NCBI GenBank assembly: GCA_009695195.1
Contig: SIBJ01000010.1
Span: forward strand, 145 to 64,144
Origin: Pedosphaera sp.
GTDB taxonomy: Bacteria; Verrucomicrobiota; Verrucomicrobiia; Limisphaerales; JADLHS01
Direction of reading: 5' to 3'
DNA: 64,000 nt
In this document: positions 6,312 to 64,000 of the stretch, piece after piece
Position numbering within the stretch: position 1 is the first letter of the stretch
Layout: every line of letters begins with the position of its first letter
Notes under the pieces: model-generated
What the model was told of the DNA's origin: nothing
The model's database searches: none
Seen by the model: the letters and a program-made list of their open reading frames with translations, nothing else
Made by a program: the position numbers and the translations under genes

Positions 6312-7793
6312 TCAAACCGCTTTTGCCGGCGGGTTTTCGCGGCTGAGGAGGCTCGCCAGCCAACCTGTCACGAACGTGATCGTCGAGCCGATCAGCACAT
6401 ACCATTGCCAGGAGATTTTAAGTTGCAGCCACACGAAGGCCATGCCCGCGACGCCCACGCTGACTCCCGTCAGCGCGCCTTTCGGCCCGACGCGGCGGGT
6501 CAAAGTGCTGAGCAGAAACAACCCTAGCACCGGCCCGTTGGTGAAGGAGGCCACCGCCAGCACCGCGTCCACGCCGCGGCCTTTCATCGCGATGGCGATC
6601 ATGGCCACGATGATTTGCACTACGCCCCAGAGCGCGGTGAACAGGCGCGAGGCGTTGAGATAGTGCATGTCGGACTTGTTGGGCGCGAACAGCGGACGGT
6701 AAAAATCCGTGACCGCCGTCGCGGAAAGCGAGTTCAACGAACTGGAAAGCGTGCTCATGGCGGCGGCGAAAATCGCAGCAACGACGAGACCGATGAGGCC
6801 GATGGGCAGTTGTGTGACGATGAAATGCGGGAACACGCGGTCCGCTTTCGCTGCGACATCCGGTGGCAGGATTGCGGCTTTCTGGTAGAACACGAACAAC
6901 ATCGTTCCAATGATCAGGAACAGCACGAACTGCGCGAAGATCACCGCGCCGCTCGTCAACAGCGCGAGCGTCGCTTGCTTCGGAGTTTTTGCGCAAAGGT
7001 AGCGTTGCACCATCAACTGATCCGTGCCATGCGTGGCCGTGGTGAGAAACGCGCCGCCGATGACGCCCGACCAGAACGTGTAGCTGCGGCTGAGGTCGAA
7101 GGTGAAGTCGAACACGTCGAACTTGTGCAGTTCACCGCCGACGGCCACAACTTCATTCCAGCCACCGGGAATTTTTCCGAGCAACACCAACGCCGCCACA
7201 ATCGCGCCGACGAGATAGACGACGAGTTGGATCGCGTCGGTCCAGATCACCGCCGCCATGCCGCCGAGATACGTGTAAACAATCGTGACCACGCCGATGA
7301 TGAGAATGGAAACCGGGTCCGCCCAACCGGTGAGCGCCACGAGCACGAGGGCCGTGAGAAAAAGCCGGATGCCGTCCGCAATCGAGCGCGTGATGAGAAA
7401 GAGCGAAGCCGCCGTGCGTTTCACACGCCCGCCGAAGCGCTGGTCGAGAATCTGATACACCGTGAACAGCTCGCCTTTGAAGTAGAGCGGAATGAACAGG
7501 GCCACGATGACGAGTCGCCCGATCATGTAACCGATGACGAGTTGCAGGAAGGTGAAGTTGCCGCCCACGCCCCCCGCGTTGGCCGCAAACGCGAACGCCG
7601 GCACGCTGATGAACGTCACCGTGGAGGTTTCCGTGGCGACGATCGAACCCATCAGCGCCCACCACGGGGCGTTGTTGTCCGAGAGAAAATAATCGCGGAT
7701 GTTGCGCTGCTTGCGGCTGAACCACCATCCCACGCCGAGCGTGCCGAGCATGTAAACCACGATGATGATGAGGTCGAGCGGATGCAGTTTCAT
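6312..7793 (-). CDS. sodium:solute symporter (SSS) family transporter
   Basis: [47 protein letters not shown]; multiple TM helices. Confidence 0.92.
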
Positions 7794-10174: not shown

Positions 10175-11395
10175 ATGAGCGCCACCGCCTCACCCCCCGC
10201 CGCCGCGAACCGCCTCATGTCCCTCGACGTGTTTCGCGGTGTGACCATCGCCGCGATGATGCTCGTCAACAATCCCGGCACGTGGTCGCACATCTACGCG
10301 CCACTGGAACATGCTCCCTGGCATGGTTGGACGTTCACCGACACCATCTTTCCGTTTTTCATTTGGATCGTGGGCGTGGCGATTCCGTTGTCCACCTCGC
10401 GCCGGCTGGAGGCGGGGCAAAGCCGCGCGGAACTGTTCCGCCACGCGTTGCGGCGCGCCGCCATCATCTTTGCGCTCGGTTTTTTTCTGAACTCGTTCAC
10501 GTTTTTCATTGATGGTTCGATGGCAAAGTTCGGGTTCGGCGAATGGCTGCATCAATACCTCACCAACGTCCGCGTCCCAGGTGTGTTGCAACGCATCGCG
10601 ATTTGTTATCTCATCGCCACGCTGATTTTTCTGCGCGCGAACATTCGCGGGCAGATTTTTTGGACCGCGGGAATCCTCGTCGGCTACTGGCTGTTGATGG
10701 CGTTCGCGCCGTTCCCCGTGAACGGCCACGGTGAAACGCGCTGGATTTCCGGCGTGCTGGAAAAGGGAGACAACTTTTCCGCCTACGTGGACAACCTCGT
10801 GCTCAACGGCCCCACAATCGGCATCCACGTTTTCAAAGCCGGGAAAACCTGGGATCCGGAAGGCACGATCAGCACGCTGCCGGCGATCGCCACCTGCCTC
10901 TTCGGCATCCTCACCGGCCACTTGCTCCGCGCGCGCCGCAGCGACGCGGAAAAAACGGCGTGGCTCATGGTCAGCGGCGCGTTGTTGATGTGGCTGGGCC
11001 TCCTGATGGACCTCGCTCTGCCGATCAACAAGGCGCTTTGGACCAGTTCCTACGCGGTGTTCATGGCCGGGCTGGCGATGGTTTGTTTCGGCGTTTACTA
11101 CTGGTTCGTGGATGTGAAGGTCTGTCGCACGCTGGTCAAACCGTTCGCCGTTTACGGCATGAACGCCATCACCGTCTTCGTGCTGTCCGGCGTGATTGGC
11201 CGGATCATGCTCACGGCCAAAGTGCCGACCGGCCCGGACACTTCGCTCAATTTGCAGGCGTGGCTGTTTCAAAAATTCTTCGCGCCGCTCGCCAGCCCCA
11301 TCAACGCCTCGCTGCTCTGGGCGATTGTTTATGTGTTCCTGCTCTATCTCGTCGCGTGGGTCATGTATCGAAAGAAGTGGTTTGTGAAGTTTTGA
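10175..11395 (+). CDS. HGSNAT/NagX-like (DUF5009) membrane acyltransferase
   Basis: RLMSLDVFRG, MMLVNNPG, HAPWHG, PGVLQRIA, DPEG, PINKALWTSSY. Confidence 0.88.
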   Translation: MSATASPPAAANRLMSLDVFRGVTIAAMMLVNNPGTWSHIYAPLEHAPWHGWTFTDTIFPFFIWIVGVAIPLSTSRRLEAGQSRAELFRHALRRAAIIFALGFFLNSFTFFIDGSMAKFGFGEWLHQYLTNVRVPGVLQRIAICYLIATLIFLRANIRGQIFWTAGILVGYWLLMAFAPFPVNGHGETRWISGVLEKGDNFSAYVDNLVLNGPTIGIHVFKAGKTWDPEGTISTLPAIATCLFGILTGHLLRARRSDAEKTAWLMVSGALLMWLGLLMDLALPINKALWTSSYAVFMAGLAMVCFGVYYWFVDVKVCRTLVKPFAVYGMNAITVFVLSGVIGRIMLTAKVPTGPDTSLNLQAWLFQKFFAPLASPINASLLWAIVYVFLLYLVAWVMYRKKWFVKF

Positions 11396-11414
11396 TTTCG
11401 CACAATTCCAGCGC

Positions 11415-11984
11415 ATGAAACTTTCGGTGAAAACTGGCGGCGTGCTGCTCGCGCTCGTGGCGTTCACGGGTTGCAACGGTTGCAACAAAACCAACCCGGC
11501 CAACAGCCTGCGCAACACCGGCCCAACGAACAACAACGTGAGCGCACAACCCTCCCTCGACGACCTGCTCCCAAAAAAGGCGCAGCCGAAACTCCAAACG
11601 CTGAAGGTCTGGGTCGGCGCGGAGGAATTGGTGACCGAGCTGGCGCTCAACCGAGAGCAACAGATGACCGGCATGATGTGGCGCACCAACATGCCCGAGA
11701 ACACCGCGATGATCTTCGTTCATCCCGCACCGCGCCAGGCCGCCTACTGGATGAAGAACTGTTACGTCCCGCTCTCCATCGCTTACATTGACACCGACGG
11801 CGTCATCCTTGAAATCCGCGACCTGCAACCGCACGACACGAACTCGGTGGTCTCGGCGTCGGAAAAGATCCGGTTCGCGCTGGAAACGCCGCAAGGCTGG
11901 TTTCTCCGCCACAACGTCAGCACCGGCGCCGTGGTGCGGACGGAACGCGGTTCGTTGCCGGAAACTTTTTTGCGGCGCAACTGA
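11415..11984 (+). CDS. DUF192 family lipoprotein
   Basis: lipobox-like FTGC; GMMWR, YWMKNCYVPLSIAYID, ALE. Confidence 0.88.
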   Translation: MKLSVKTGGVLLALVAFTGCNGCNKTNPANSLRNTGPTNNNVSAQPSLDDLLPKKAQPKLQTLKVWVGAEELVTELALNREQQMTGMMWRTNMPENTAMIFVHPAPRQAAYWMKNCYVPLSIAYIDTDGVILEIRDLQPHDTNSVVSASEKIRFALETPQGWFLRHNVSTGAVVRTERGSLPETFLRRN

Positions 11985-11991
11985 TTCCAAC

Positions 11992-12096
11992 GGGCTGAAA
12001 GCCCGGGATGTGAATAGCCCGGGGTCAGGACGCGAGAGCGGACGCAGCCCCAGGTCTTCGGCCAAAAAGATTCTGCGCCCTGAAAAGGGTGCGACA
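11992..12096 (+). repeat. REP-like element, left arm (inverted partner of 16053-16135)
   Basis: GGGCTGAAAGCCCG..ATAGCCCGGGG..GCCCCAGGT..TCGGCCAAAAAGATTC..GCCCTG..GCGACA. Confidence 0.8.
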
Positions 12097-12140
12097 AGTT
12101 TGGTTGGCAGCGCGCGGGCGGCGGCGATAGGATTCCGGCC

Positions 12141-15100
12141 ATGAGCCAGACTGGGCAATCGGCGCGGGCGAAGCAGGCGTTTGTGCCGCTCTCCAAATCT
12201 CATCCGCTGCTCGCGGCTCAGTGGCATCCCACCAAAAACGGCAACGTCTCGCCGGACGATGTCTGGGCGAACTACAGCAAGAAATTCTGGTGGCGATGTG
12301 ACAAAGGGCATGAATGGGAAGCCCGCGTTCGCAATCGGGCGGTGAGCGGTTACGGCTGTCCTTATTGCTCAGGCAGGTTCATTCCTCCGGAAAGGTCGGT
12401 TGCAAAACTTCACCCTGAACTTTTGTTGGAGTGGCATCCCGCGAAGAATGGCTCACTCAATCCCCAAGCACTCGGGCCGGGCAGTCGAGCGAAGATATGG
12501 TGGTTGTGCCGTAAGAACCAAGCCCATGAATGGCGAACCAGCCTTAGCAAAAGAACCACAGAAGGGACTGGCTGCCCATTTTGTTCTGGTCGCAAGCGCA
12601 GTGAAGGGACTTCGTTCGCAGTCAGATTCTCGAATCTCATGAAGGAGTGGCATCCGACGCTCAACGCACACCTTGACGCACGCACGATGATCGCCGAGAG
12701 CCGCGAGAAAGTGTGGTGGCAGTGCGCCAAAGATTCGAGCCACGTTTGGCAGACGCAGGCGCGAAGTCGAATCAGGGGAGACAAGGGCTGCCCGAAGTGC
12801 AAGCAAATGCTCGTGCCGAAGCGGACGACTCTCGACGTGTTCTCAGCGAGTTTAGCGTCCGAGTGGCATCCGACGAAAAACGACCGACTTCTTCCGAAAG
12901 ACGTGAGCGCCGGAAGCACGACGAAAGTCTGGTGGCGCTGTTCCCGAAATCCGTCGCATGAATGGGAAGCTGCCGTTGGCGACCGATGCCGGGGCAATGG
13001 GTGTCCCTTTTGTGCAGGCCAAAGAGTTGACCTGTCGAACTCGCTTGCAGCAGTCCGCCCCGAACTTGCCGCGCAGTGGCATCCAACGAAGAACGAGAAT
13101 TTGACGCCTGAGACAGTCACCGTGGGCAGCGCCAAGGTTGCGTGGTGGCGGTGTCCCACAAACCCAAAGCACGAATGGCGGACAAAAGTGTTGCATAGAA
13201 CTCGGCGTATTGGATCAGGCTGTCCGTTTTGTGCGCGAGGTTTTGAGGGTGATGTCAACTCGCTGGCATCCCGTTTTCCAGTTCTTGCGGCCCAATGGCA
13301 CAAGACAAAGAACGGTAAGCGCACCCCTGACAACGTAACTCCCGGTTCTGACCTCAAGGCGTGGTGGCAGTGTGACAAAGACGCGAGTCACGTTTGGGAA
13401 GCAAAAATCAAGAATCGCGTGATCCTCAAAAGCGGTTGCCCGATTTGCCGAGTCGGCTGGACTGTCGCTGGCATCCGGAGCTTCGTGGACTCACTCAAAG
13501 CGCATCTCTGCTCGTTCACTCCTGCCGAACTTTACGTTCTGTTTCAACAAAACGGTTTGCTCAGTGGCGACCGCAAGAGCCAGGCGTTTCTCGATGCGTT
13601 GGCGACGGGGCGATTTCCCTTCGAGGAGATCGAGAAGTTTTGCGAAGGACAGAAGTCGCTGGTGGATTCGTTCCTCGCGGATTCAACGCTCACGCTCGAA
13701 GCATTGAGCGAGACGAAGCCGGAGACGACGAAAGAAAATGAGTTGGGCGTCGTCGGCGAAGCGCAGGAAGAAAGCGTGGAGCTTCCCACGGCGGACACGG
13801 CGGACGTGCTCAAGTCGTTGCAGTCGCCGGTGGTCGTCTCCGCCGATCAGGAGGCGATTGATTTCCTGGTGGCTTCGGCGTTGGCGAAAATTTGGAAGCA
13901 CGCTTTCCGCGATGAGACCGTCGCCGTGGCGCAGGCGCGAGATTTCAAGGGCGATGCTTACGCGGAGCGGGTGCGGACGGAATTCCTCGCGGAGTATGAG
14001 CGCGTGAAGTCGCTGGAGATTCCGGCGGGTTATGAGTTCAAGGTTGAGGGCAAGCCGGCGCTGCCGAATCTCATGCAGCGATTGGTGGCGTCGCGGATTC
14101 AGCAGAAGCGGCGCGAGGGAAACTGGTCGGGCACGGGCGCGGGCAAGACACTTTCGGCGGTGCTGGCAAGTCGCGTGGTCGGCGCGAAGCTCACGGTGAT
14201 TTGTTGTCCGAACAGCGTGGTTGAGGGTTGGAAGTCGGCGATTTTGAACGCGTTTCCAGACAGTCTGGTAGCGACGAAGACGTTCGCGCCGGATTGGGCG
14301 GCGATTGCAGGCGATGAGACGGGTTTCGGCAAAGCGGGGGCGGCGCATCGTTACGTTGTCGTGAATTACGAGGCGTTTCAGCAGGAAGATTCGGAGAAGA
14401 AGGTGCGGAAGTTCGCGAAGCACGAGGCGGCGGATTTCGTGGTGGTGGATGAGATTCATTTCACCAAGCAACGGACGGTGGAGAATCTTTCCAAGCGCAA
14501 GAAGCTGGTGACGGCGTTGATCAGCCTGGCCGCCGCGAAGAATCCGCAGTTGTGCGTGCTGGGGATGTCGGCGACGCCGGTGATCAACAATTTGCAGGAG
14601 GGCAAGAGTCTGGTGGAGATGGTGTCGGGTCTGGCGCACGACGACCTGAACACGCGCCCGACGGTGGCGCATTGCATGATGCTGCATCAGCGGTTGGTGA
14701 CGCTGGGCACGCGGTGGCTGCCGGATTACCAGATCGTGTGCGACGTGCAGACGCCGGAAGTGGATTGTGGCGAACACTTGGAGGAGATCAAGGCGCTCGG
14801 ACGAAGCGGCACGCCGCTGGAGTTGGAGCAGATTCTCACGCGCGTCCGGCTGCCGATCATCCGGCAGAACATTCGCCCGAAGACGCTGCTCTACACGCAC
14901 TACATTCAGGACATTGATTCGGCGCTCTACCAGGCTTTGGTCGCAGACGGCTGGCGCGTCGGCTTTTTCACGGGCGATGACAAGAGCGGGCTGGAAGGAT
15001 TTCTGCATGGCGACGTGGATGTGTTGATTGGTTCGAGCGCCATCGCGACGGGCGTGGACGGACTTCAGGAAGTTTGCCAGCGGCTTGTCATCAATGTGCT

Positions 15101-16049
15101 GCCGTGGACGAACGCGGAGTTCGAGCAACTCAAGGGGCGCATCTACCGGCAGGGCCAGCACGCGGACAAGGTCACGGTGATCGTGCCGATCACTTACGCG
15201 GACGTGAACGGCCAGCGTTGGTCGTGGTGCGGATCGAAGATGCGGCGGCTGCATTTCAAGAAGTCCATCGCGGACGCGGCGGTGGACGGCGTCGTGCCGG
15301 AGGGTCACTTGCGCACGTCGGCACAGGCGTATCAGGACGTGATGGGCTGGTTGGATCGGCTGACGACGGGGCGAGTCGAAGTGATTGAGCGACCGCGAAT
15401 TGTTGTGCCGTTGCCGCAAGACGACGGCGGCGAAGTCGAGCGGCGCGCCCGGGAGTATGGCGACTTCTCGGCTATGAACGGGCTATGGAATCGTAGCCGT
15501 AGCGCGACGACACAAACGCGGCTGCAACAGAATCCCGAAGAGTGGGCGCAGTATCACACGCTGTATCGCGAGGCGCGGAAGGATTGGTCGGTCGTGCCGT
15601 TTGAGGAATTCATCCGCTGGGCGAAGCAGCGAAGCGATTACGTTATCGGCGACTTCGGATGCGGCGAAGCGAAAGTCGCGGAAGCGCTGGCGGATGCTCA
15701 CACGGTTCACAGCTTTGATTACGTGGCGGCGAACGATGAAGTGACCGCGTGCGACATGACGAAGACACCGCTGGAGGATGCGACGCTCGACGTGGCGTTG
15801 TTCTCGCTCTCGCTCATGGGCGCGAACTTCACGGATTACCTGCGCGAGGCGTGGCGGGTACTCAAGCTTGACGGACAGTTGCATGTCTTCGAGGCGACCT
15901 CGCGGTTTGGAAATCGTGATGCGTTTGTGACGGAACTGAAGAAGCTGGGATTCGCGAATGTCGAGATGCGAGACGCATGGAAGTTCACGCACATTTACGC
16001 GTTCAAGTCAGAGCGATTGCCAGCGGCGGATGTTGAAATGAGCTTCTGA
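12141..16049 (+). CDS. fusion protein: 6x zinc-ribbon (DUF4379-like) + SF2 helicase + Rrp8-like SAM methyltransferase
   Basis: six WHPxKN..WWxC..HxW..CPxC repeats; GTGAGKT, VVDEIH, SATP, QLKGRIYRQG; DFGCGEA..VHSFD..CDM..FSLSLMG..EAWRVLK. Confidence 0.85.
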   Translation: MSQTGQSARAKQAFVPLSKSHPLLAAQWHPTKNGNVSPDDVWANYSKKFWWRCDKGHEWEARVRNRAVSGYGCPYCSGRFIPPERSVAKLHPELLLEWHPAKNGSLNPQALGPGSRAKIWWLCRKNQAHEWRTSLSKRTTEGTGCPFCSGRKRSEGTSFAVRFSNLMKEWHPTLNAHLDARTMIAESREKVWWQCAKDSSHVWQTQARSRIRGDKGCPKCKQMLVPKRTTLDVFSASLASEWHPTKNDRLLPKDVSAGSTTKVWWRCSRNPSHEWEAAVGDRCRGNGCPFCAGQRVDLSNSLAAVRPELAAQWHPTKNENLTPETVTVGSAKVAWWRCPTNPKHEWRTKVLHRTRRIGSGCPFCARGFEGDVNSLASRFPVLAAQWHKTKNGKRTPDNVTPGSDLKAWWQCDKDASHVWEAKIKNRVILKSGCPICRVGWTVAGIRSFVDSLKAHLCSFTPAELYVLFQQNGLLSGDRKSQAFLDALATGRFPFEEIEKFCEGQKSLVDSFLADSTLTLEALSETKPETTKENELGVVGEAQEESVELPTADTADVLKSLQSPVVVSADQEAIDFLVASALAKIWKHAFRDETVAVAQARDFKGDAYAERVRTEFLAEYERVKSLEIPAGYEFKVEGKPALPNLMQRLVASRIQQKRREGNWSGTGAGKTLSAVLASRVVGAKLTVICCPNSVVEGWKSAILNAFPDSLVATKTFAPDWAAIAGDETGFGKAGAAHRYVVVNYEAFQQEDSEKKVRKFAKHEAADFVVVDEIHFTKQRTVENLSKRKKLVTALISLAAAKNPQLCVLGMSATPVINNLQEGKSLVEMVSGLAHDDLNTRPTVAHCMMLHQRLVTLGTRWLPDYQIVCDVQTPEVDCGEHLEEIKALGRSGTPLELEQILTRVRLPIIRQNIRPKTLLYTHYIQDIDSALYQALVADGWRVGFFTGDDKSGLEGFLHGDVDVLIGSSAIATGVDGLQEVCQRLVINVLPWTNAEFEQLKGRIYRQGQHADKVTVIVPITYADVNGQRWSWCGSKMRRLHFKKSIADAAVDGVVPEGHLRTSAQAYQDVMGWLDRLTTGRVEVIERPRIVVPLPQDDGGEVERRAREYGDFSAMNGLWNRSRSATTQTRLQQNPEEWAQYHTLYREARKDWSVVPFEEFIRWAKQRSDYVIGDFGCGEAKVAEALADAHTVHSFDYVAANDEVTACDMTKTPLEDATLDVALFSLSLMGANFTDYLREAWRVLKLDGQLHVFEATSRFGNRDAFVTELKKLGFANVEMRDAWKFTHIYAFKSERLPAADVEMSF

Positions 16050-16052
16050 TTG

Positions 16053-16135
16053 TGTCGCCCTTACAGGGCTTGGAATCTTTTTGCCGATTAACCCGGGGCG
16101 TTGCCCCGGGCTATCATCTTTCGGGCGTTCAGCCC
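16053..16135 (-). repeat. REP-like element, right arm
   Basis: reverse complement GGGCTGAACGCCCG..ATAGCCCGGGG..GCCCCGGGT..TCGGCAAAAAGATTC..GCCCTG..GCGACA. Confidence 0.8.
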
Positions 16136-16269
16136 TTCCGCCTGCATCCGGTTTCGGCGCGACGAGTTCAATCAGCGGGCATCCCGCCTGCGTTTAACTT
16201 CGGCGCAGTGGAACTTTCAAAAACGGGATTTGGGGTTGCACGGTCAGGAGAGGGTGTTAGTCTCGAATC

Positions 16270-17106
16270 GTGAGCGGCGAAGCTTCAACCGAGAACCCAT
16301 TCCATTTGCAGCCGGACAAACCCGGATTTGAGGCGCTTTCCAAGACGAATGGTTTCCGTTTCTGGTGGGCGTCCGAACTGGCCGTCACGCTGGGCTACGA
16401 AAGCTTGAACAGTTTCCGCAAGGCCGTCGAGCGGGCGATGATCGCGCTGACCAGCTTGAACATTCCGGTGTTCGACAACATCGTTCAGGAGCAACGCGAG
16501 GCGGATGGCAAAACGATTGTGGACTACCGCCTTTCTCGTTTCGCGTGTTACCTGGCAGCGATGAACGGCGATCCCAAGAAGCAACAAGTGGCGCAGGCTC
16601 AGGCTTATTTTGTGAAGTGGGCGGAGGCGTGCCGGTTGTATCTCGAACAGGCGGATGGCGTGGAGCGCGTGGCGATTCGCGGGGAAATCTCCGAGCACGA
16701 ACGCACGTTGTCCGGCACGGCCAAGGCGGCGGGTGTGACGGAGTATGGTTTGTTTCAAAACGCGGGCTATCGCGGTCTTTACAACATGGATTTGTGGCAG
16801 GTCCGTCGGCGTAAAGGCGTGCCACAGGGGCGCACACCACTGGACTTCATGGGCAAGACCGAACTGGCGGCGAATTTGTTTCGCGTGACGCAAACCGAGG
16901 AAAAAATCCGCGCGGCGAAAATCCGCGGACAAAAACCTTTGGAACGTACCGCCGAGGACGTGGGACGTGAAGTTCGTCGCACGATGGTCAAGATCAGCGG
17001 CAAACGCCCGGAGGAGTTGCCGCCCGCCGAGGACATCAAGGAAGTTCATAAGAAGCTGAAGTCCACGCACCGTGAGATTCGGAAATTGGACGGGCCGAAG
17101 GCGTAG
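16270..17106 (+). CDS. DinD/BRO-like DNA-damage-inducible protein
   Basis: WWASEL..LGY, DYRLSRFACYL..NGDPKK..AQAQAYF, FQNAGYRGLY, DFMGKTELAANLFRVTQT. Confidence 0.85.
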   Translation: MSGEASTENPFHLQPDKPGFEALSKTNGFRFWWASELAVTLGYESLNSFRKAVERAMIALTSLNIPVFDNIVQEQREADGKTIVDYRLSRFACYLAAMNGDPKKQQVAQAQAYFVKWAEACRLYLEQADGVERVAIRGEISEHERTLSGTAKAAGVTEYGLFQNAGYRGLYNMDLWQVRRRKGVPQGRTPLDFMGKTELAANLFRVTQTEEKIRAAKIRGQKPLERTAEDVGREVRRTMVKISGKRPEELPPAEDIKEVHKKLKSTHREIRKLDGPKA

Positions 17107-17177
17107 AAAGCACCGTAGGACTTACGGAGCGCGATTTAACGGTTTAACGATTCCACGCGGGCCATTATCCTGCGCCC

Positions 17178-18629
17178 ATGATTTCGCGGGCCAAATCCGA
17201 AGCGCTGTTCGCCGAGGCGCTCAAGTACATTCCGGGTGGCGTCAATTCTCCCGTGCGCGCGTTTCGCGCCGTGGGCGGCAAACCGTTCTTCGTCAATCGC
17301 GCCAGCGGCTGCCGCGTGTGGGACGTGGATGGGAACGAATACATTGATTACGTCGGCACGTGGGGGCCGGCGATTCTCGGGCACGCGCATCCCAAAATCA
17401 TTTCCGCCATCAAGGCCGCCGCCGATCACGGCACGAGTTTTGGCATTCCGAATCCGGGCGAGGTCACGATGGCAAAACTCATCTGCTCGCTTGTGCCCAG
17501 CGTGCAGAAGGTGCGCATGACCAACTCCGGCACGGAAGCCTGCATGAGCGCCATCCGCCTCGCGCGCGGGTTCACGAAGCGCGACAAGATCATCAAGTTC
17601 GACGGCTGCTATCACGGCCACGGCGATTCGTTGCTCGTCAAAGCCGGCAGCGGCGCGCTCACATTCGGTCATCCGGACAGTCTGGGTGTGCCGGCGGATT
17701 TTGCGAAACTCACCCTCGTCTTGCCTTACAACGAGGCCGAGCCGCTCAAAGCCGCGTTCGCGGCGAACAAAAACGAGATCGCGTGCATCATCGTCGAGCC
17801 GGTGGCGGGTAACGCGGGATTGTTCGTCCCCAAACCGGGCTGGCTGGAATTCCTGCGCGAGATCACCAAAGCCAACGGCGCGCTGCTCATCTTCGACGAA
17901 GTGATGACTGGTTTCCGTCTCGCGCCCGGCGGCGCGCAGGAGCGCTTTGGCATCACGCCGGATTTGACGTGCCTGGGAAAAATCATCGGCGGCGGTCTGC
18001 CGGTGGGCGCTTTCGGCGGGCGGGCGGACATCATGGATTATCTCGCGCCGCTTGGCCCGGTGTATCAGGCGGGAACGCTCAGCGGCAATCCGCTGGCGAT
18101 GGCGGCGGGGATTGCGAATCTGCAAGAACTTTGTGGGTTGGACGCAGGTGGAGCGAACCCTCACCCCGGCCCTCTCCCTTTCCGAAAGGGAGAGGGAGAA
18201 TCATCCTCAGCCGGACGCCATGCTCATGCACTCACGACAACTGGCGACCGTGCGAAAGCTGTTCCCTCTCCTGGGGGAGAGGGTCAGGGTGAGGGCGGTC
18301 TAAAAAACAAATACCTCCTGCTCGAACAACTCGGCGCGTTGCTCGAATCCGGGATGAAGGACGCCGCGAAATCCGCGGGCGCGCCGGTGACGTTCAACCG
18401 CTGCGGTTCGATGTTCTGCGGTTACTTCACCGGCGAGCCGGTGTGGAATCTTGCCGACGCGATGAAAGCCGACCGCGAACGGTTCAAGAAATTCTTCCAC
18501 GGCATGTTGGACGCGGGCGTTTATCTCGCGCCGTCGCAATTCGAGGCTGGTTTCATGTCCACGGCTCACAGCGAGGCGGACATTGCCAAGACGGTGAGCG
18601 CGGCGGCGCAGGTGATGAAGGGACTTTAA
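17178..18629 (+). CDS. hemL: glutamate-1-semialdehyde 2,1-aminomutase with in-frame repeat insertion
   Basis: [52 protein letters not shown]. Confidence 0.96.
18158..18295. repeat. palindromic element inserted in-frame in hemL
   Basis: CCCTCACCCCGGCCCTCTCCC ... GGGAGAGGGTCAGGGTGAGGG terminal inverted arms; 138 nt = 46 codons. Confidence 0.85.
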
Positions 18630-19890: not shown

Positions 19891-21573
19891 TCAGATCACC
19901 GAGCGAGCGGTGAGAAACGCCTTCAATGCCGCCGCCGCCGCCTTGCCGCCGAAACCGGACACTTCCGCAAGCTGCTCGACGGTCGCCGCGCGCAGCCGTT
20001 GCACGGAGCCGAATTTTTTCAGCAGAGCGGCCTTGCGCTGGTCGCCGATGCCGGGGAAGTCATCGAGAATGCTCTCGGAAATTTTCTTGATGCGAAGCTG
20101 GGCGTTGTAGGAGTTGGCGACGCGATGAGATTCGTCCCGCACGCGCTGGAGCAATTTCACGGCGGGATGATCGAGGCCGAGGCGCAGCGGCGTGCTCTCG
20201 CCGGGTCGGTAGATTTCCTCGAACTCTTTCGCCAATCCAATGACGGTGAGGTGACCCAAACCGAGCTTGGCGAGTTCCGCACACGCGGCGTTGAGTTGGC
20301 CTTTGCCGCCGTCTATGAGGATGAGGTCGGGCAAGTTACTTTTCCCACCCACCCACTCACCCACTTTCCCACTCACGGGCGTAAGTGGGTGAGTGGGTGA
20401 GTGGGTGAGTGGGTGAGTCCGACTTCGCCCCCGCCTCACTCGCACGCTGGTCTCATCCACCAGCTTCTGCAACTCCTGCGGGATCGCTTCGCCGCCTTCG
20501 TCGCGCGCTTGGACTCTGGACTCTGGACTCTGGACTCTGGACTCATTCAGCAGCCGCGTGTAGCGCCGCCGCACGACTTCCGCCATGCTCGCGAAGTCAT
20601 CCTGGCCGGCGACGGTCTTGATTTTGAACCGGCGATAATTCGCCCGGTCGGGCCGGCCGTGCTTGAAACTCACCAGCGACGCCACGGCGAACGTGCCGCT
20701 GATGTTCGAGATGTCGAAGCCCTCGATGCGTTGGGGTGGCGACGCGAGGTGGAGGATTTTTGACAATTCAACCAGGTCGTTTTCCGGGTTGATCGCGAGT
20801 GGCAAAGTGTAAGGGACTCGCTCGAACGACTTTTCCTTCTTCGTCGTGCGCCCGAGGTCCTTGATGAGATCGCGCAAGTCCGCGGCCTTCTCGTAATCCT
20901 GCGCGACGGCGGCTTTGCGCATCTCGACTTCGAGCTGGTCTTTCATCTCACTGCATTGACCGTCGAGGAAGCCGCACGCCGCGGTGACCTGTTGGACGTA
21001 TTGCTCGCGCGTGACGTTGCCGATGCAGGGCGCGGTGCAATATTTGAGATGCGCGTAGAGGCAATGCTTGTAATCGGCCTCGCCTGGCGTGAACACCCGG
21101 CAGCCACGCAAGTTGAACTGCTTGCGGACGAGCGCGAGCGTGTTGCGCGCGGCGGTGGAGTTCGTGAACGGCCCGTAGTAACGCGCGCCGTCGTCTTTGC
21201 GAATGCGGGCGAAGGCGAAGTTCGGAATCGGATCGTTCAGGTTGATCTTCACCAGCAGGAAGCGCTTGTCGTCGCGAAAGCTGATGTTGTAGCGCGGCTG
21301 GAATTCCTTGATGAGTTTGCTTTCGAGGAGCAACGATTCCGGTTCGTTGCGCACGACGTGGACATCGAAATCATGAATCGCTTCAACGAGCGCGTTGAAT
21401 TTCAAGTCCCAGCCCATCCGCCGCGAGGGGTGGAAATACTGGCTCACCCGCTTGCGCAAATCACGCGCCTTGCCCACGTAAACGACGGTGCCGAACCGGT
21501 CCTTCATCAGATAGATGCCGGGCTTGTGCGGCAGCGTGGAGATTTTCTTGCGGATGGCGTCGGTTGCAGGCAC
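19891..21573 (-). CDS. uvrC: excinuclease ABC subunit C with repeat-derived insertion
   Basis: GIY..YVGKARDLRKRV GIY-YIG, RIEGFDISN, PDLILIDGGKGQ, RDESHR, HhH. Confidence 0.96.
   Translation of the reverse strand: MPATDAIRKKISTLPHKPGIYLMKDRFGTVVYVGKARDLRKRVSQYFHPSRRMGWDLKFNALVEAIHDFDVHVVRNEPESLLLESKLIKEFQPRYNISFRDDKRFLLVKINLNDPIPNFAFARIRKDDGARYYGPFTNSTAARNTLALVRKQFNLRGCRVFTPGEADYKHCLYAHLKYCTAPCIGNVTREQYVQQVTAACGFLDGQCSEMKDQLEVEMRKAAVAQDYEKAADLRDLIKDLGRTTKKEKSFERVPYTLPLAINPENDLVELSKILHLASPPQRIEGFDISNISGTFAVASLVSFKHGRPDRANYRRFKIKTVAGQDDFASMAEVVRRRYTRLLNESRVQSPESRVQARDEGGEAIPQELQKLVDETSVRVRRGRSRTHPLTHSPTHPLTPVSGKVGEWVGGKSNLPDLILIDGGKGQLNAACAELAKLGLGHLTVIGLAKEFEEIYRPGESTPLRLGLDHPAVKLLQRVRDESHRVANSYNAQLRIKKISESILDDFPGIGDQRKAALLKKFGSVQRLRAATVEQLAEVSGFGGKAAAAALKAFLTARSVI
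20344..20544. repeat. (GTGGGTGA)x4 with inverted arm plus (TGGACTC)x5 inside uvrC
   Basis: octamers 20385-20416 pair with 20344-20376; heptamers 20510-20544. Confidence 0.85.
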
Positions 21574-30100: not shown

Positions 30101-30822
30101 AAAACCACCGGCGCATTGGGCACCAGCGTGACACGCCCGACGACGTCGCCCGCCGCGCCCGACACGGGATCGAGTTCGCGAACTTCGTAAGTCGTGATCG
30201 TGCCGATCAATTCGGAAAACGCGTGACCGGCGCAAATGGTGAGTCCGGGATTGCCGTGCTCAAGCAGCGCCAGCATTTCGGCAGTGGGCACGTCGGTCGC
30301 GGCCTTCTGAAACGCGGAGAGAACTTTTTGCGGTAGCGTTTGATTCGTGATGCCGGGCACTTTGCGCAGCAGCCCGAAGACATTGGTCCCGACTGCCGAG
30401 GCGAGCGCGTCGTTGAGCGAAGCGAGATTCTGGCCGAGCGCAACCGACTGATTCAGCTTCGAGTTGATGGCGGTTACATCCGGTGCTTGAACCAGATTGC
30501 CGCGCAAAGTAAATGCGCCCGCGTTCGTGGGATAACCGGGCTTGCCATAAACCGCGAAGCGTTTCCCCGCGAGAATCTGCGGCGCATCCGTATCGAGTAG
30601 CACGTAAGACCAATCCTGGTTCGAGTTATCGCGGATGGTGGTGCCGACCGAGTAAACGAGATTGGAGAGCGGGGTTTGGGCGCGAGCGCTGAAGCACCAA
30701 GCTCCAAAGACCAAGCTCCAGAGAAGCACCAACTTCCAAATACCAAAGCAGAGAGTGCTGCTCTTGAAGCTTGAAGCTTGGAGCTTCTCTGGAGCTTGGT
30801 GCTTGGGATTTGGAGCTTTCAT
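27178..30822 (-). CDS. large secreted beta-sandwich/FnIII-like repeat protein (~1214 aa)
   Basis: signal peptide ending ARA-Q; repeated LxW..Y/FxxYR..YxVxAxD patterns. Confidence 0.75.
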   Translation of the reverse strand: MKAPNPKHQAPEKLQASSFKSSTLCFGIWKLVLLWSLVFGAWCFSARAQTPLSNLVYSVGTTIRDNSNQDWSYVLLDTDAPQILAGKRFAVYGKPGYPTNAGAFTLRGNLVQAPDVTAINSKLNQSVALGQNLASLNDALASAVGTNVFGLLRKVPGITNQTLPQKVLSAFQKAATDVPTAEMLALLEHGNPGLTICAGHAFSELIGTITTYEVRELDPVSGAAGDVVGRVTLVPNAPVVLPAPGRPFQVVSNQMSEHLLIRLRWGTPAELRRLSVLNVGFNLWRIPKAVAEAGNFHVTPPTPAQLHGNANFVQANRAAVFAPMDYNAGSGAGAADDPADRITFFFADSGRGSSSPPFTDGEQFYYFATARDLLGRDGLVSPGGLARACRRLTPKQPTDVKVVNTVLPGSTNQPRLQVNWVQNTNAADLVTHYWIYRWPNPTMALTNDATPLNFRVGVVTNVPGTNFNSFIDTGIGALTNANITNAWFTVRAVSVAACDPLLSPHAGPAWGVLRQRDAPDVATGSVIGSCGTPVVMFQSFVTNTITVNTQAWSLRLTCQRRDRGIAWVTFTVTNYWTGTQTVGPVYFPPDDDLAPVDFEMPSVNTYPPEVWVTCTVGTQYGQTSQPASSTFVVPIPPGKQKEIVFYAGQLLSTALNSSDPLLTELNQGSTFCLSPYSAVPDVNGMVAIHLDITLGSPILIQALTNNTWYDVAVVTPDANSISWVSFPACLIGPLPQFRGCRVNQAMAADCDQHVARAADSGEVAPLRVRFTLTPRTREYRVYRRADQGPLTLVAQGAGAYDPAKPTRILEVRDDTMPSSPTRLCYFVQLLDEHGSGSPLSFIGCKEVKPDKLPRPVLSEPIAIGSNNNAQVTLNWFCPTAGVSRFQFKISRTDSPKPSESSGFASPKVTHYPVYNTNASYLGLKKKSSKYLPASFLEAHWTSRIGAGFGPGPQFTINATVIPNATYSVCVAAVDDQGNVGDASDAWEFSWKPPVVLPTVPWPARPLPPVRDFDTFTTPSPSYEFNPRVAAVVLFNDGGLLDRRYPVLIRIGELVSEQEAGTVLASNVGNTNYVHYSRYGSSSQNPDPNPTIFRSRSPDSSRAGQPLLPIAIYRQQITNDWFPKVSGDLTQVSPLIERIPWRITPNGQVITIPDRLFANYYETKDALHYYNFLYLRDLQPVVAGAAYEYFVVRFDAKREVQEVVPAGLVTIPQNP

Positions 30823-40677: not shown

Positions 40678-40893
40678 AATCCCAAAGGGATTGTGTCCTC
40701 CAGCCCAGGGTTGCGAGGAACGAGCTACCCTGGGTCAGCCGAAGAAAATCCCGCCAACCCCAACGGGGTTGCGGCGAGGTTGACCGCGACGATGCCACAA
40801 CCCCGTTGGGGTTGAGAAAATCCCGTTCCCCGTTCACCCAAGGTAGCTCGTTCCTCGCAACCTTGGGCTTTGGGCCGGAATCCCTTTGGGATT
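40678..40893. repeat. 216-bp REPIN/MITE-like nested palindrome
   Basis: AATCCCAAAGGGATT..AGCCCAGGGTTGCGAGGAACGAGCTACCCTGGG..CAACCCCAACGGGGTTG mirrored on the right arm. Confidence 0.85.

Positions 40894-61615: not shown

Positions 61616-64000
<2,385 letters not shown>

Follow-up and report, generated by a model that had tools for sequence, protein, structure and literature searches.

Repetitive extragenic palindromes (REPs) are defined, in the available portion of PMC2817692, by an imperfect palindrome with a GT(A/G)G head immediately 5′ of it. The accessible parts of three papers describe REP doublets (REPINs) as the unit mobilized by REP-associated tyrosine transposases, or RAYTs (PMC2817692, PMC6006769, PMC8266576), and the last two describe the Y1 enzymes of REP systems as cutting and rejoining REP hairpins on single strands. 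GTAG-headed REPs have been reported in Verrucomicrobia, in Opitutus terrae (PMC3733652, in the part available). A preprint of October 2026 still lists the structured motif Acido-Lenti-1 (RF01687) among the families without a known function. Here we describe a locus in a 64,000-nucleotide (nt) stretch of Pedosphaera sp. DNA (contig SIBJ01000010.1; hereafter the window), in which a gene for a 1302-residue helicase–methyltransferase protein lies between two inverted arms of a REP-like element related to Acido-Lenti-1. That arm, gene and arm form a discrete unit of a REPIN-like family is well supported. We lean towards reading the region as a REPIN-like doublet with a gene in its centre, the whole having been inserted as one unit and travelling as a cassette.

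An initial annotation of the window had taken the two ends of this locus for inverted arms of one REP-like element around the gene, and the arms bear this out. The sequence blocks that it named are present in both, and the arms are inverted copies of each other, with 76% mean column identity (MAFFT, 11985-12110 on the plus strand against the reverse complement of 16045-16145) and 70 of 92 aligned bases identical in a pairwise alignment; a repeat search of the window returns their shared core as the inverted repeat 12047-12088 / 16058-16099. With R1, our covariance model of the full arm, the left arm (11988-12101, minus strand) scores 52.9 bits (E 2e-13) and the right arm (16046-16139, plus strand) 78.7 bits (E 1e-20). 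Each comprises three hairpins. In the left arm, the outer hairpin H1 (11992-12004) is followed by an ATAG head (12014-12017), the middle hairpin H2 with a long loop (12018-12054), the inner hairpin H3 (12075-12092) and the word GACA (12093-12096). The right arm runs from H3 (16057-16069) through a short-looped H2 (16092-16110) and CTAT, which is ATAG on the opposite strand (16111-16114), to H1 (16123-16135). An 18-nt insertion in the left arm falls within the H2 loop in the MAFFT alignment. The DNA fold of the left arm has a z of -2.28 and that of the right arm -3.65 on the plus and -3.97 on the minus strand. A stop codon adjoins the arm at both sides of the unit: the DUF192 open reading frame (ORF) ends at 11984, ahead of H1 of the left arm, and the cargo gene (12141-16049, plus strand), the sole long ORF between the arms, has its stop codon within the right arm, ahead of H3.

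The two arms belong to a wider repeat family. In both, H2 and H1 cover the 46-position RF01687 model from end to end, with scores below its gathering score of 37 bits (right arm, 16092-16136, 33.1 bits; left arm, minus strand, 11991-12054, 17.2 bits), and the window arms are divergent members of the Acido-Lenti-1 repeat family, without being Rfam hits. In the source genome (G000), eight RF01687 matches pass the gathering score, in (-)(+) pairs about 100-150 nt apart, with many more just below it, and arms of the family other than those of the window reach 44.9-58.3 bits; the pair sites, when inspected, are palindromic doublets, each half of which reads, in order, H1 (outer), CTA(C/T), a longer H2, a variable spacer, H3 (inner) and a conserved inner word. 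An alignment of 18 arms over their full length, both window arms included (A2), yields all three hairpins in RNAalifold, and 13 of the 18 base pairs show compensatory changes. The opposite strand of the arms reads RTAG-CC-palindrome, the head being GTAG in 6 of the 18, ATAG in 11 (among them both window arms) and ATAA in one. A match of the right arm, minus strand, to the Twister-P5 ribozyme (RF02684) reached 23.0 bits against a gathering score of 37.6; we reject it as a hairpin look-alike because it rests on H2 and its 3′ part crosses H3, a covarying hairpin of its own. Other weak Rfam matches (Avashort thermometer, psaA, CbSR2) are likewise hairpin look-alikes.

This family is sparse. Plain blastn with the arms finds only two further copies in the genome, an under-count, as the family is visible only through covariance models. 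An R1 census of G000 (4.46 Mb, 90.8% complete, 162 contigs; E≤1e-4, 150 of 872 candidates scored, so that counts are lower bounds) gave 25 arms, of which 20 stand in 10 short (-)(+) doublets, one lies 3′ of a Y1 transposase gene, two are the window pair and two are singletons; this copy number is under the usual REP level of more than 100 per genome. R1 matches occur in 39 of the 41 genomes searched, all of the same order, with 0-62 arms in each relative at E≤1e-6 (again lower bounds), and the inverted-doublet pattern is also present in the match lists of G004, G015 and G016. The initial annotation had allowed for an abundant family, in which inverted flanking would be expected by chance. Two independent REP insertions around one gene would accord with the preference of REPs for sites just after stop codons (PMC3733652, in the part available), where both arms lie. 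However, by our own arithmetic only about 0.005 inward-facing pairs within 4.2 kb are expected among the five arms outside doublets, the arm subfamily has only one further close copy in the genome, and the arrangement is repeated at eight other loci with a homologous gene. We therefore consider coincidence very improbable. Elsewhere in the window, at 40678-40893, lies another three-hairpin palindromic doublet, with 58-nt arms that are 86% complementary and 100 nt apart; at 22.3 bits with R1 it is a distant relative of the arm family and has neither cargo nor the CTA word.

The family is accompanied by a Y1 transposase. A 150-residue Y1 gene at G000:C12:31989-32438 (Pfam Y1_Tnp, 74.9 bits) stands in the order arm(-), arm(+), Y1 gene, arm(+), with a doublet directly upstream and an arm directly downstream. 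In all three other genomes examined, the Y1 gene lies between arm(-) and arm(+): on a Chthoniobacteraceae contig (L044; arms 1170-1277 and 1771-1877, Y1 ORF 1299-1748; Y1_Tnp, 82.5 bits), in G018:C12 (L095; Y1_Tnp, 85.3 bits) and in G004:C2 (L096; tblastn, 67% identical). It thus holds the same position between the arms as the helicase gene does in the window, which agrees with the earlier proposal that the cargo occupies the place of a RAYT gene or REPIN spacer. The search for a cognate transposase that the initial annotation had proposed came out in its favour: an IS200-like Y1 gene stands beside the arms, though its product does not reach the NCBI RAYT model. The NCBIfam IS200/IS605 equivalog NF033573 (cut-off 55) is passed by two of the three Y1 proteins compared (60.6 and 65.2 bits), the protein from L044 scoring 53.7. 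These proteins are RAYT-like by context, as observed, and not RAYTs by sequence.

The insertion site lies between two conserved neighbours, a DUF192 gene on the left (11415-11984, plus strand; PF02643, 89.9 bits) and a hemL-like aminotransferase gene on the right (17178-18629, plus strand; PF00202, 241.8 bits). DUF192 was found in 40 of the 41 genomes searched, and the helicase–methyltransferase gene in none of 40 relatives from the same genus, family and order. The DUF192–hemL junction, which the initial annotation had proposed might be empty in relatives, is indeed empty in G001 (same genus), G007, G009 and G035, where hemL follows DUF192 by about 15-60 nt; these relatives are distant, with DUF192 67-72% identical (G035, 49%). 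In G008, a different ORF of 495 residues separates the two genes. A search of 19 relative loci (L019-L037) turned up no arm. The DUF192 protein ends in LRRN* in the window and in LRR* in G008, and the inserted element may have supplied its last codon and stop. The window insert begins where DUF192 ends, stops about 60 nt short of hemL and comprises the arm–gene–arm unit and a separate ORF outside the arms (16270-17106, plus strand), which matches the candidate defence protein PDC-S13 (PADLOC, 292.2 bits) and, below the cut-off, Bro-N (PF02498, 23.5 bits). This ORF is likewise missing from the empty sites; it is not part of the arm-bounded unit, and the junction is a small two-gene accessory islet. 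Among contigs assembled from public runs over 10500-18600, the left junction is bridged by X1, X2 and X3 and the right by X1 and X2, X1 and X2 being possible source samples and X3 another study. The contigs of four public runs hold no joint that skips the cassette, a result uninformative on excision since contigs drop rare variants.

The arm–gene–arm arrangement recurs in other genomes. We compared 50 loci with relatives of the cargo protein, taken from species-representative genomes and metagenomes; the named loci closest to the window are from Verrucomicrobiota (Limisphaerales, Chthoniobacteraceae). Among the 20 closest loci whose flanks were inspected, R1 finds an arm(-) 40-70 nt upstream of the start codon in eight (L039, L042, L046, L049, L050, L063, L064 and L067), and in all six armed loci with the 3′ flank on the contig an arm(+) starts at the stop codon. 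In the other 30 loci, more distant or partial, R1 gives no arm next to the gene at E≤1. Homologues of DUF192, the Bro-N ORF, hemL and the upstream ORF are found at none of the 50. DNA likeness to the window stops at the arms: it spans 11981-16167 in L039, 12132-16137 in L063 and 12062-16098 in L067 and runs to 16137 in L049, and over the armed loci its left limit falls at 11981-12168 and its right limit at 16098-16167. Beyond the arms, all that the flanks have in common is short runs of 7-8-nt repeats. Identity of the right arm is 82-85% with arms of the L049, L063 and L039 units, as against 66-73% with four resident G000 arms; for the left arm it is 76% with the corresponding arms of L039 and L046, as against 59-68% with resident arms; this higher identity indicates that the window arms share ancestry with those of the homologous units and were not recruited from G000 doublets. 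Taken together, the empty site in relatives and the armed recurrence in unrelated contexts point to a discrete unit that travels as a cassette.

The ends of this unit may extend somewhat beyond the arms. Likeness to L039 continues to 16167, and the word at 16167-16177 mirrors both the one immediately to the left of the left arm and the repeat runs on the outer side in other units, so that 16136-16200 is a possible outer tail. In many units, inverted runs of 7-8-nt repeats lie outside the outer hairpin (window 11975-11991 and 16136-16200; flanks of L039, L049, L050, L067 and L094), and the palindrome extends 40-100 nt past the arms. Low-complexity inverted and tandem oligonucleotide repeats are also found between genes at 20344-20543, 30692-30818 and 63694-63733 of the window and may be related to the repeat runs that flank arms elsewhere. 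Base composition does not mark the cassette, its GC content being 0.592 against 0.606 for the window, with 0.72 at third codon positions against 0.75-0.81 in neighbouring genes.

Inverted pairs enclosing accessory genes, which the initial annotation had proposed to count, exist beyond the helicase: inward-facing arm pairs with gaps of kilobase size hold four further types of cargo. G020:C351 holds a 617-residue tetratricopeptide-repeat (TPR)/zinc-ribbon protein (arms 220-331 and 2206-2299, ORF 347-2200). The other three lie between (-)...(+) arms of a single genome, G016, and encode a GmrSD_N protein (C1; 104 bits), a 457-residue TPR protein on the minus strand (C3) and a three-ORF cluster with two RlaP (C23). 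The geometry of the arms is the same for plus- and minus-strand cargo (L098, L099). A homologue of the RlaP cluster in the window's own genome adjoins the singleton arm C121:54618-54710, which is the closest copy of the window right arm (86-90% identical). At that site (L089, G000:C121:48000-60000; arm at 6619-6711) the singleton abuts an RlaP-type nucleotidyltransferase gene and other ORFs, and the G016:C23 cluster is armed on both sides. A 7.6-kb (-)...(+) pair in G004:C2, which encloses several ordinary-looking genes including DUF192, was set aside as two singletons and not a unit.

The G016:C1 unit sits between Hen1-like and Pnkp-like genes. This RNA-repair junction holds a different insert in each of four congeners, three of them arm-less: in G016 (L102/L097), arms and the GmrSD-like gene; in G017 (L104), an ORF of 294 residues; in G047 (L105), one of 323 residues; and in G004 (L107), a TPR ORF of 457 residues. 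The 457-residue ORF of G004 is an arm-less homologue of the G016:C3 cargo. The Hen1–Pnkp junction looks like a second insertion hotspot.

These loci bear on the main rival to a travelling unit, which was the second option of the initial annotation, namely that the REPIN centre is an acceptor. Incoming genes would enter resident doublets of one subfamily, that with a long H2 loop, where they stand, through recombination, site-specific or homologous, at the conserved inner motif, and the arms would not be the movers. Three different cargos between arms in one genome, with the G016:C1 and G016:C3 arms 78-86% alike, speak for it, as does an unloaded long-loop doublet with a 90-nt centre at G004:C1:1966135-1966447, which is 82% like the G016:C1 arm. 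It would also account for cargo genes that occur without arms, such as the 457-residue TPR gene of G004 and 12 of the 20 closest helicase loci, for the scatter of arm state on the gene tree, and for the two arms of one unit being more alike, by eye, than arms of different units in L042, L049, L064 and L067. Against loading in place, the four empty DUF192–hemL sites have no doublet, although those relatives are distant; the window arms are closer to arms of homologous genes elsewhere than to the four resident arms; across the window, L039 and L046, each arm resembles those on its own side, left or right; and no recombinase gene lies beside the units inspected. We judge this explanation unlikely, though it deserves serious weight, and it is not exclusive with movement as a unit.

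Alternatively, the arms could be functional cis elements inherited with the gene and uninvolved in movement, either two-way terminators or insulators or sources of outward Acido-Lenti-1 small RNAs, the whole being spread by ordinary island transfer. Both arms fold stably on either strand (z -2.3 to -4.0), the right arm begins at the stop codon, REPs are reported to stand mainly a short way downstream of ORFs, with presumed roles in termination and mRNA stability (PMC3733652, in the part available), and Rfam lists the motif as a small RNA. However, the same arms enclose a Y1 transposase gene, gene-less doublets occur in 39 of the 41 genomes searched, and the geometry is independent of cargo strand. 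Moreover, a promoter-like site at the inner end of the left arm places that arm outside the gene's own transcript, and the only T-tailed terminator-like site near the right arm, 16175-16191, is outside it. The transposase link, the strand-independent geometry and the sparse copy number make a purely regulatory role the weaker explanation, one that we regard as improbable, and lead us to set chance aside.

Movement as a cassette faces difficulties of its own, which we weigh together here. No excision product, empty allele or circle junction has been seen. In twelve of the 20 closest homologues the gene lacks a neighbouring arm; five of these are cut at one end and could be judged on one side only. 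On a quick tree, the only one used for the test of arm state, armed and arm-less rows are interleaved, arm state requiring at least seven changes and being no more clustered than by chance (216 of 500 shuffles as low); the rows of L040, L043 and L057, with stops replaced by X, have long branches and an uncertain placement. The junction insert holds a second ORF outside the arms. Instead of a simple inverted pair, the Y1 gene of G000 is flanked by a (-)(+) doublet at one end and a (+) arm at the opposite end, and none of the three Y1 proteins passes NCBIfam NF047646 (REP_Tyr_transpos; best 21.6 against a cut-off of 80), a model that, we assume, may have been built on proteobacterial RAYTs. Finally, the window arms read ATAG and not GTAG, and the E. 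coli TnpA-REP tolerates no change of GTAG, according to the available part of PMC8266576. As to the scatter on the tree, arms have been lost or gained repeatedly among the homologues; the deepest rows of the Verrucomicrobial clade carry arms on the quick tree, and the arm-less L044 and L068 keep, by eye, the leader and an apparent piece of H3. The scattered arm state fits repeated loss of arms, without proving it.

Weighing these points, we still favour a cassette, for which the following mechanism can be proposed. Each arm is a three-hairpin unit of about 95-115 nt that presents an RTAG head and the H2 palindrome on one strand and the Acido-Lenti-1 RNA of Rfam on the other. Arms usually stand head to head as short doublets in G000 and its relatives and, in other genomes, with an IS200-like Y1 (HUH) gene between two of them; in the window, a promoter-like leader and the 1302-residue gene fill the doublet centre instead. 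The package would have been inserted at the very end of DUF192, beside a small defence-type ORF and upstream of hemL. A Y1 transposase, acting in trans on single-stranded DNA, would excise and insert it, as is thought for REPINs, and the arms could also serve as two-way terminators around the cargo. We infer mobilization in trans because a Y1 gene is found between such arms just where the cargo lies in the window, and because enzymes of this kind cleave and reseal REP hairpins; it would be the most economical mechanism. A broader proposal, which we offer tentatively as possible and somewhat short of probable, is that the 'RNAs' of Acido-Lenti-1 belong to a DNA transposition system as its arms. 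The REPIN-type doublets of this system could take up whole genes, many being defence-like, and carry them within and between Verrucomicrobiota genomes by means of a Y1 enzyme encoded elsewhere.

The cargo protein comprises six DUF4379 zinc-ribbon repeats, a superfamily 2 helicase and a Methyltransf_8 domain, as seen in its Pfam matches (PF14311, 377.8 bits over six stretches; PF04851; PF00271; PF05148, 161.4 bits); no Y1_Tnp domain is found in it by Pfam. The six zinc-ribbon repeats are visible as direct DNA repeats of 213-219 nt at 12141-13400, and some homologues of 854-875 residues in the protein database are without the zinc-ribbon region. PADLOC gives no full-length match for the cargo, only matches of 60-125 residues to the helicase core (PbeA, 32.3 bits; DrmD, 30.4 bits), and no NCBIfam family reaches beyond that core, DrmD scoring 36.3 against a cut-off of 610. 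The protein family is large and spread over many phyla, with at least 1644 relatives at E≤0.001 (7997 candidates scored). Between the left arm and the ATG, a consensus scan places a promoter-like site (12104-12133, plus strand; TTGGCA, 18 nt, TAGGAT; 9 of 12 matches). As this site ends 7 nt before the start codon, the cargo mRNA may be leaderless. By eye, the leader of the gene is conserved in the armed homologues L039, L046 and L067 and in the arm-less L068.

Several arm-less helicase loci lie beside apparent fragments of defence genes, recognized by eye from translations as a Cas9-like N-terminus and type I restriction enzyme-like pieces; these are upstream of the gene in L041, L062 and L045 and in the flanks of L040, L043, L047 and L057. 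Plain translation of the matched range meets 17 stops in L040, 42 in L043 and 15 in L057, which may reflect frameshifts, pseudogenes or a match that changes frame.

If the cassette reading is true, it changes the picture of REPINs and RAYTs as gene-less, vertically inherited passengers, since hairpin repeats of a Y1/HUH system could serve as the ends of gene cassettes. There would be a single-strand-hairpin cassette system, comparable in role to integron cassettes or pdif modules and distinct in mechanism, and the abundant Rfam family Acido-Lenti-1 would gain a concrete role. Inward-facing arm pairs with a kilobase-scale gap would provide a search rule for accessory and candidate defence genes in poorly studied phyla. 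Its repeated placement in cassettes and beside defence-type genes makes the zinc-ribbon/helicase/methyltransferase protein a candidate for testing.

In MITE-flanked integrons (MITE, miniature inverted-repeat transposable element), integron mobilization units and the pdif modules of Acinetobacter plasmids, accessory genes that vary from unit to unit lie between inverted short elements, and the enzyme is encoded elsewhere. These units use DDE transposases or XerC/XerD on double-stranded DNA. The present locus differs in that its ends are hairpin repeats of an HUH/Y1 system and its two arms make up one ordinary doublet. With IS200/IS605 elements that carry passenger genes, it shares the Y1 transposase family, subterminal hairpins and the expectation of no terminal duplication; however, the unit has neither tnpA nor tnpB, and its two ends are inverted copies of one sequence, unlike those of IS200/IS605 elements (PMC8266576 and PMC6006769, in the parts available). 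The TIRtrons of Acidobacteria and their transposase TIRYT (Di Nocera 2013, PMC3733652, in the part available) are similar in having Y1 genes flanked by long inverted repeats in moderately abundant families. That part names Koribacter versatilis, a species that contributes a sequence to the Acido-Lenti-1 seed alignment. It describes no cargo besides the transposase. In contrast to Acido-Lenti-1 as first reported (RF01687; Weinberg 2010, PMC2864571), we find a DNA repeat with a third hairpin, arranged in inverted pairs and tied to a Y1 transposase.

The closest likeness is to REPINs and REPtrons with their RAYTs (PMC2817692; Bertels and Rainey 2011, PMC3116915; Quentin 2018, PMC6006769). In these systems, as here, a tetranucleotide head adjoins a palindrome and inverted doublets are scattered between genes, and a low-copy Y1/HUH gene is flanked by the same inverted repeats, tight against stop codons (Nunvar 2010, PMC2817692). 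In the literature searched, as far as its text was available, we found no account of REP arms that carry a gene other than a transposase gene; what comes closest in print is the replacement, in some E. coli strains, of the REPtron locus by a toxin/antitoxin operon (PMC6006769, in the part available). The locus departs from these systems in its three-hairpin arm of about 95-115 nt, where a REP has 20-40 nt, in its 25 copies, its RTAG head and a Y1 protein that scores below the RAYT model. Its doublet centre is filled by a 3.9-kb gene that is not a transposase, and the package occurs in unrelated genomes, whereas published work, including the available part of PMC6006769, describes REPINs as gene-less and inherited vertically and says that REPtrons do not move as one unit.

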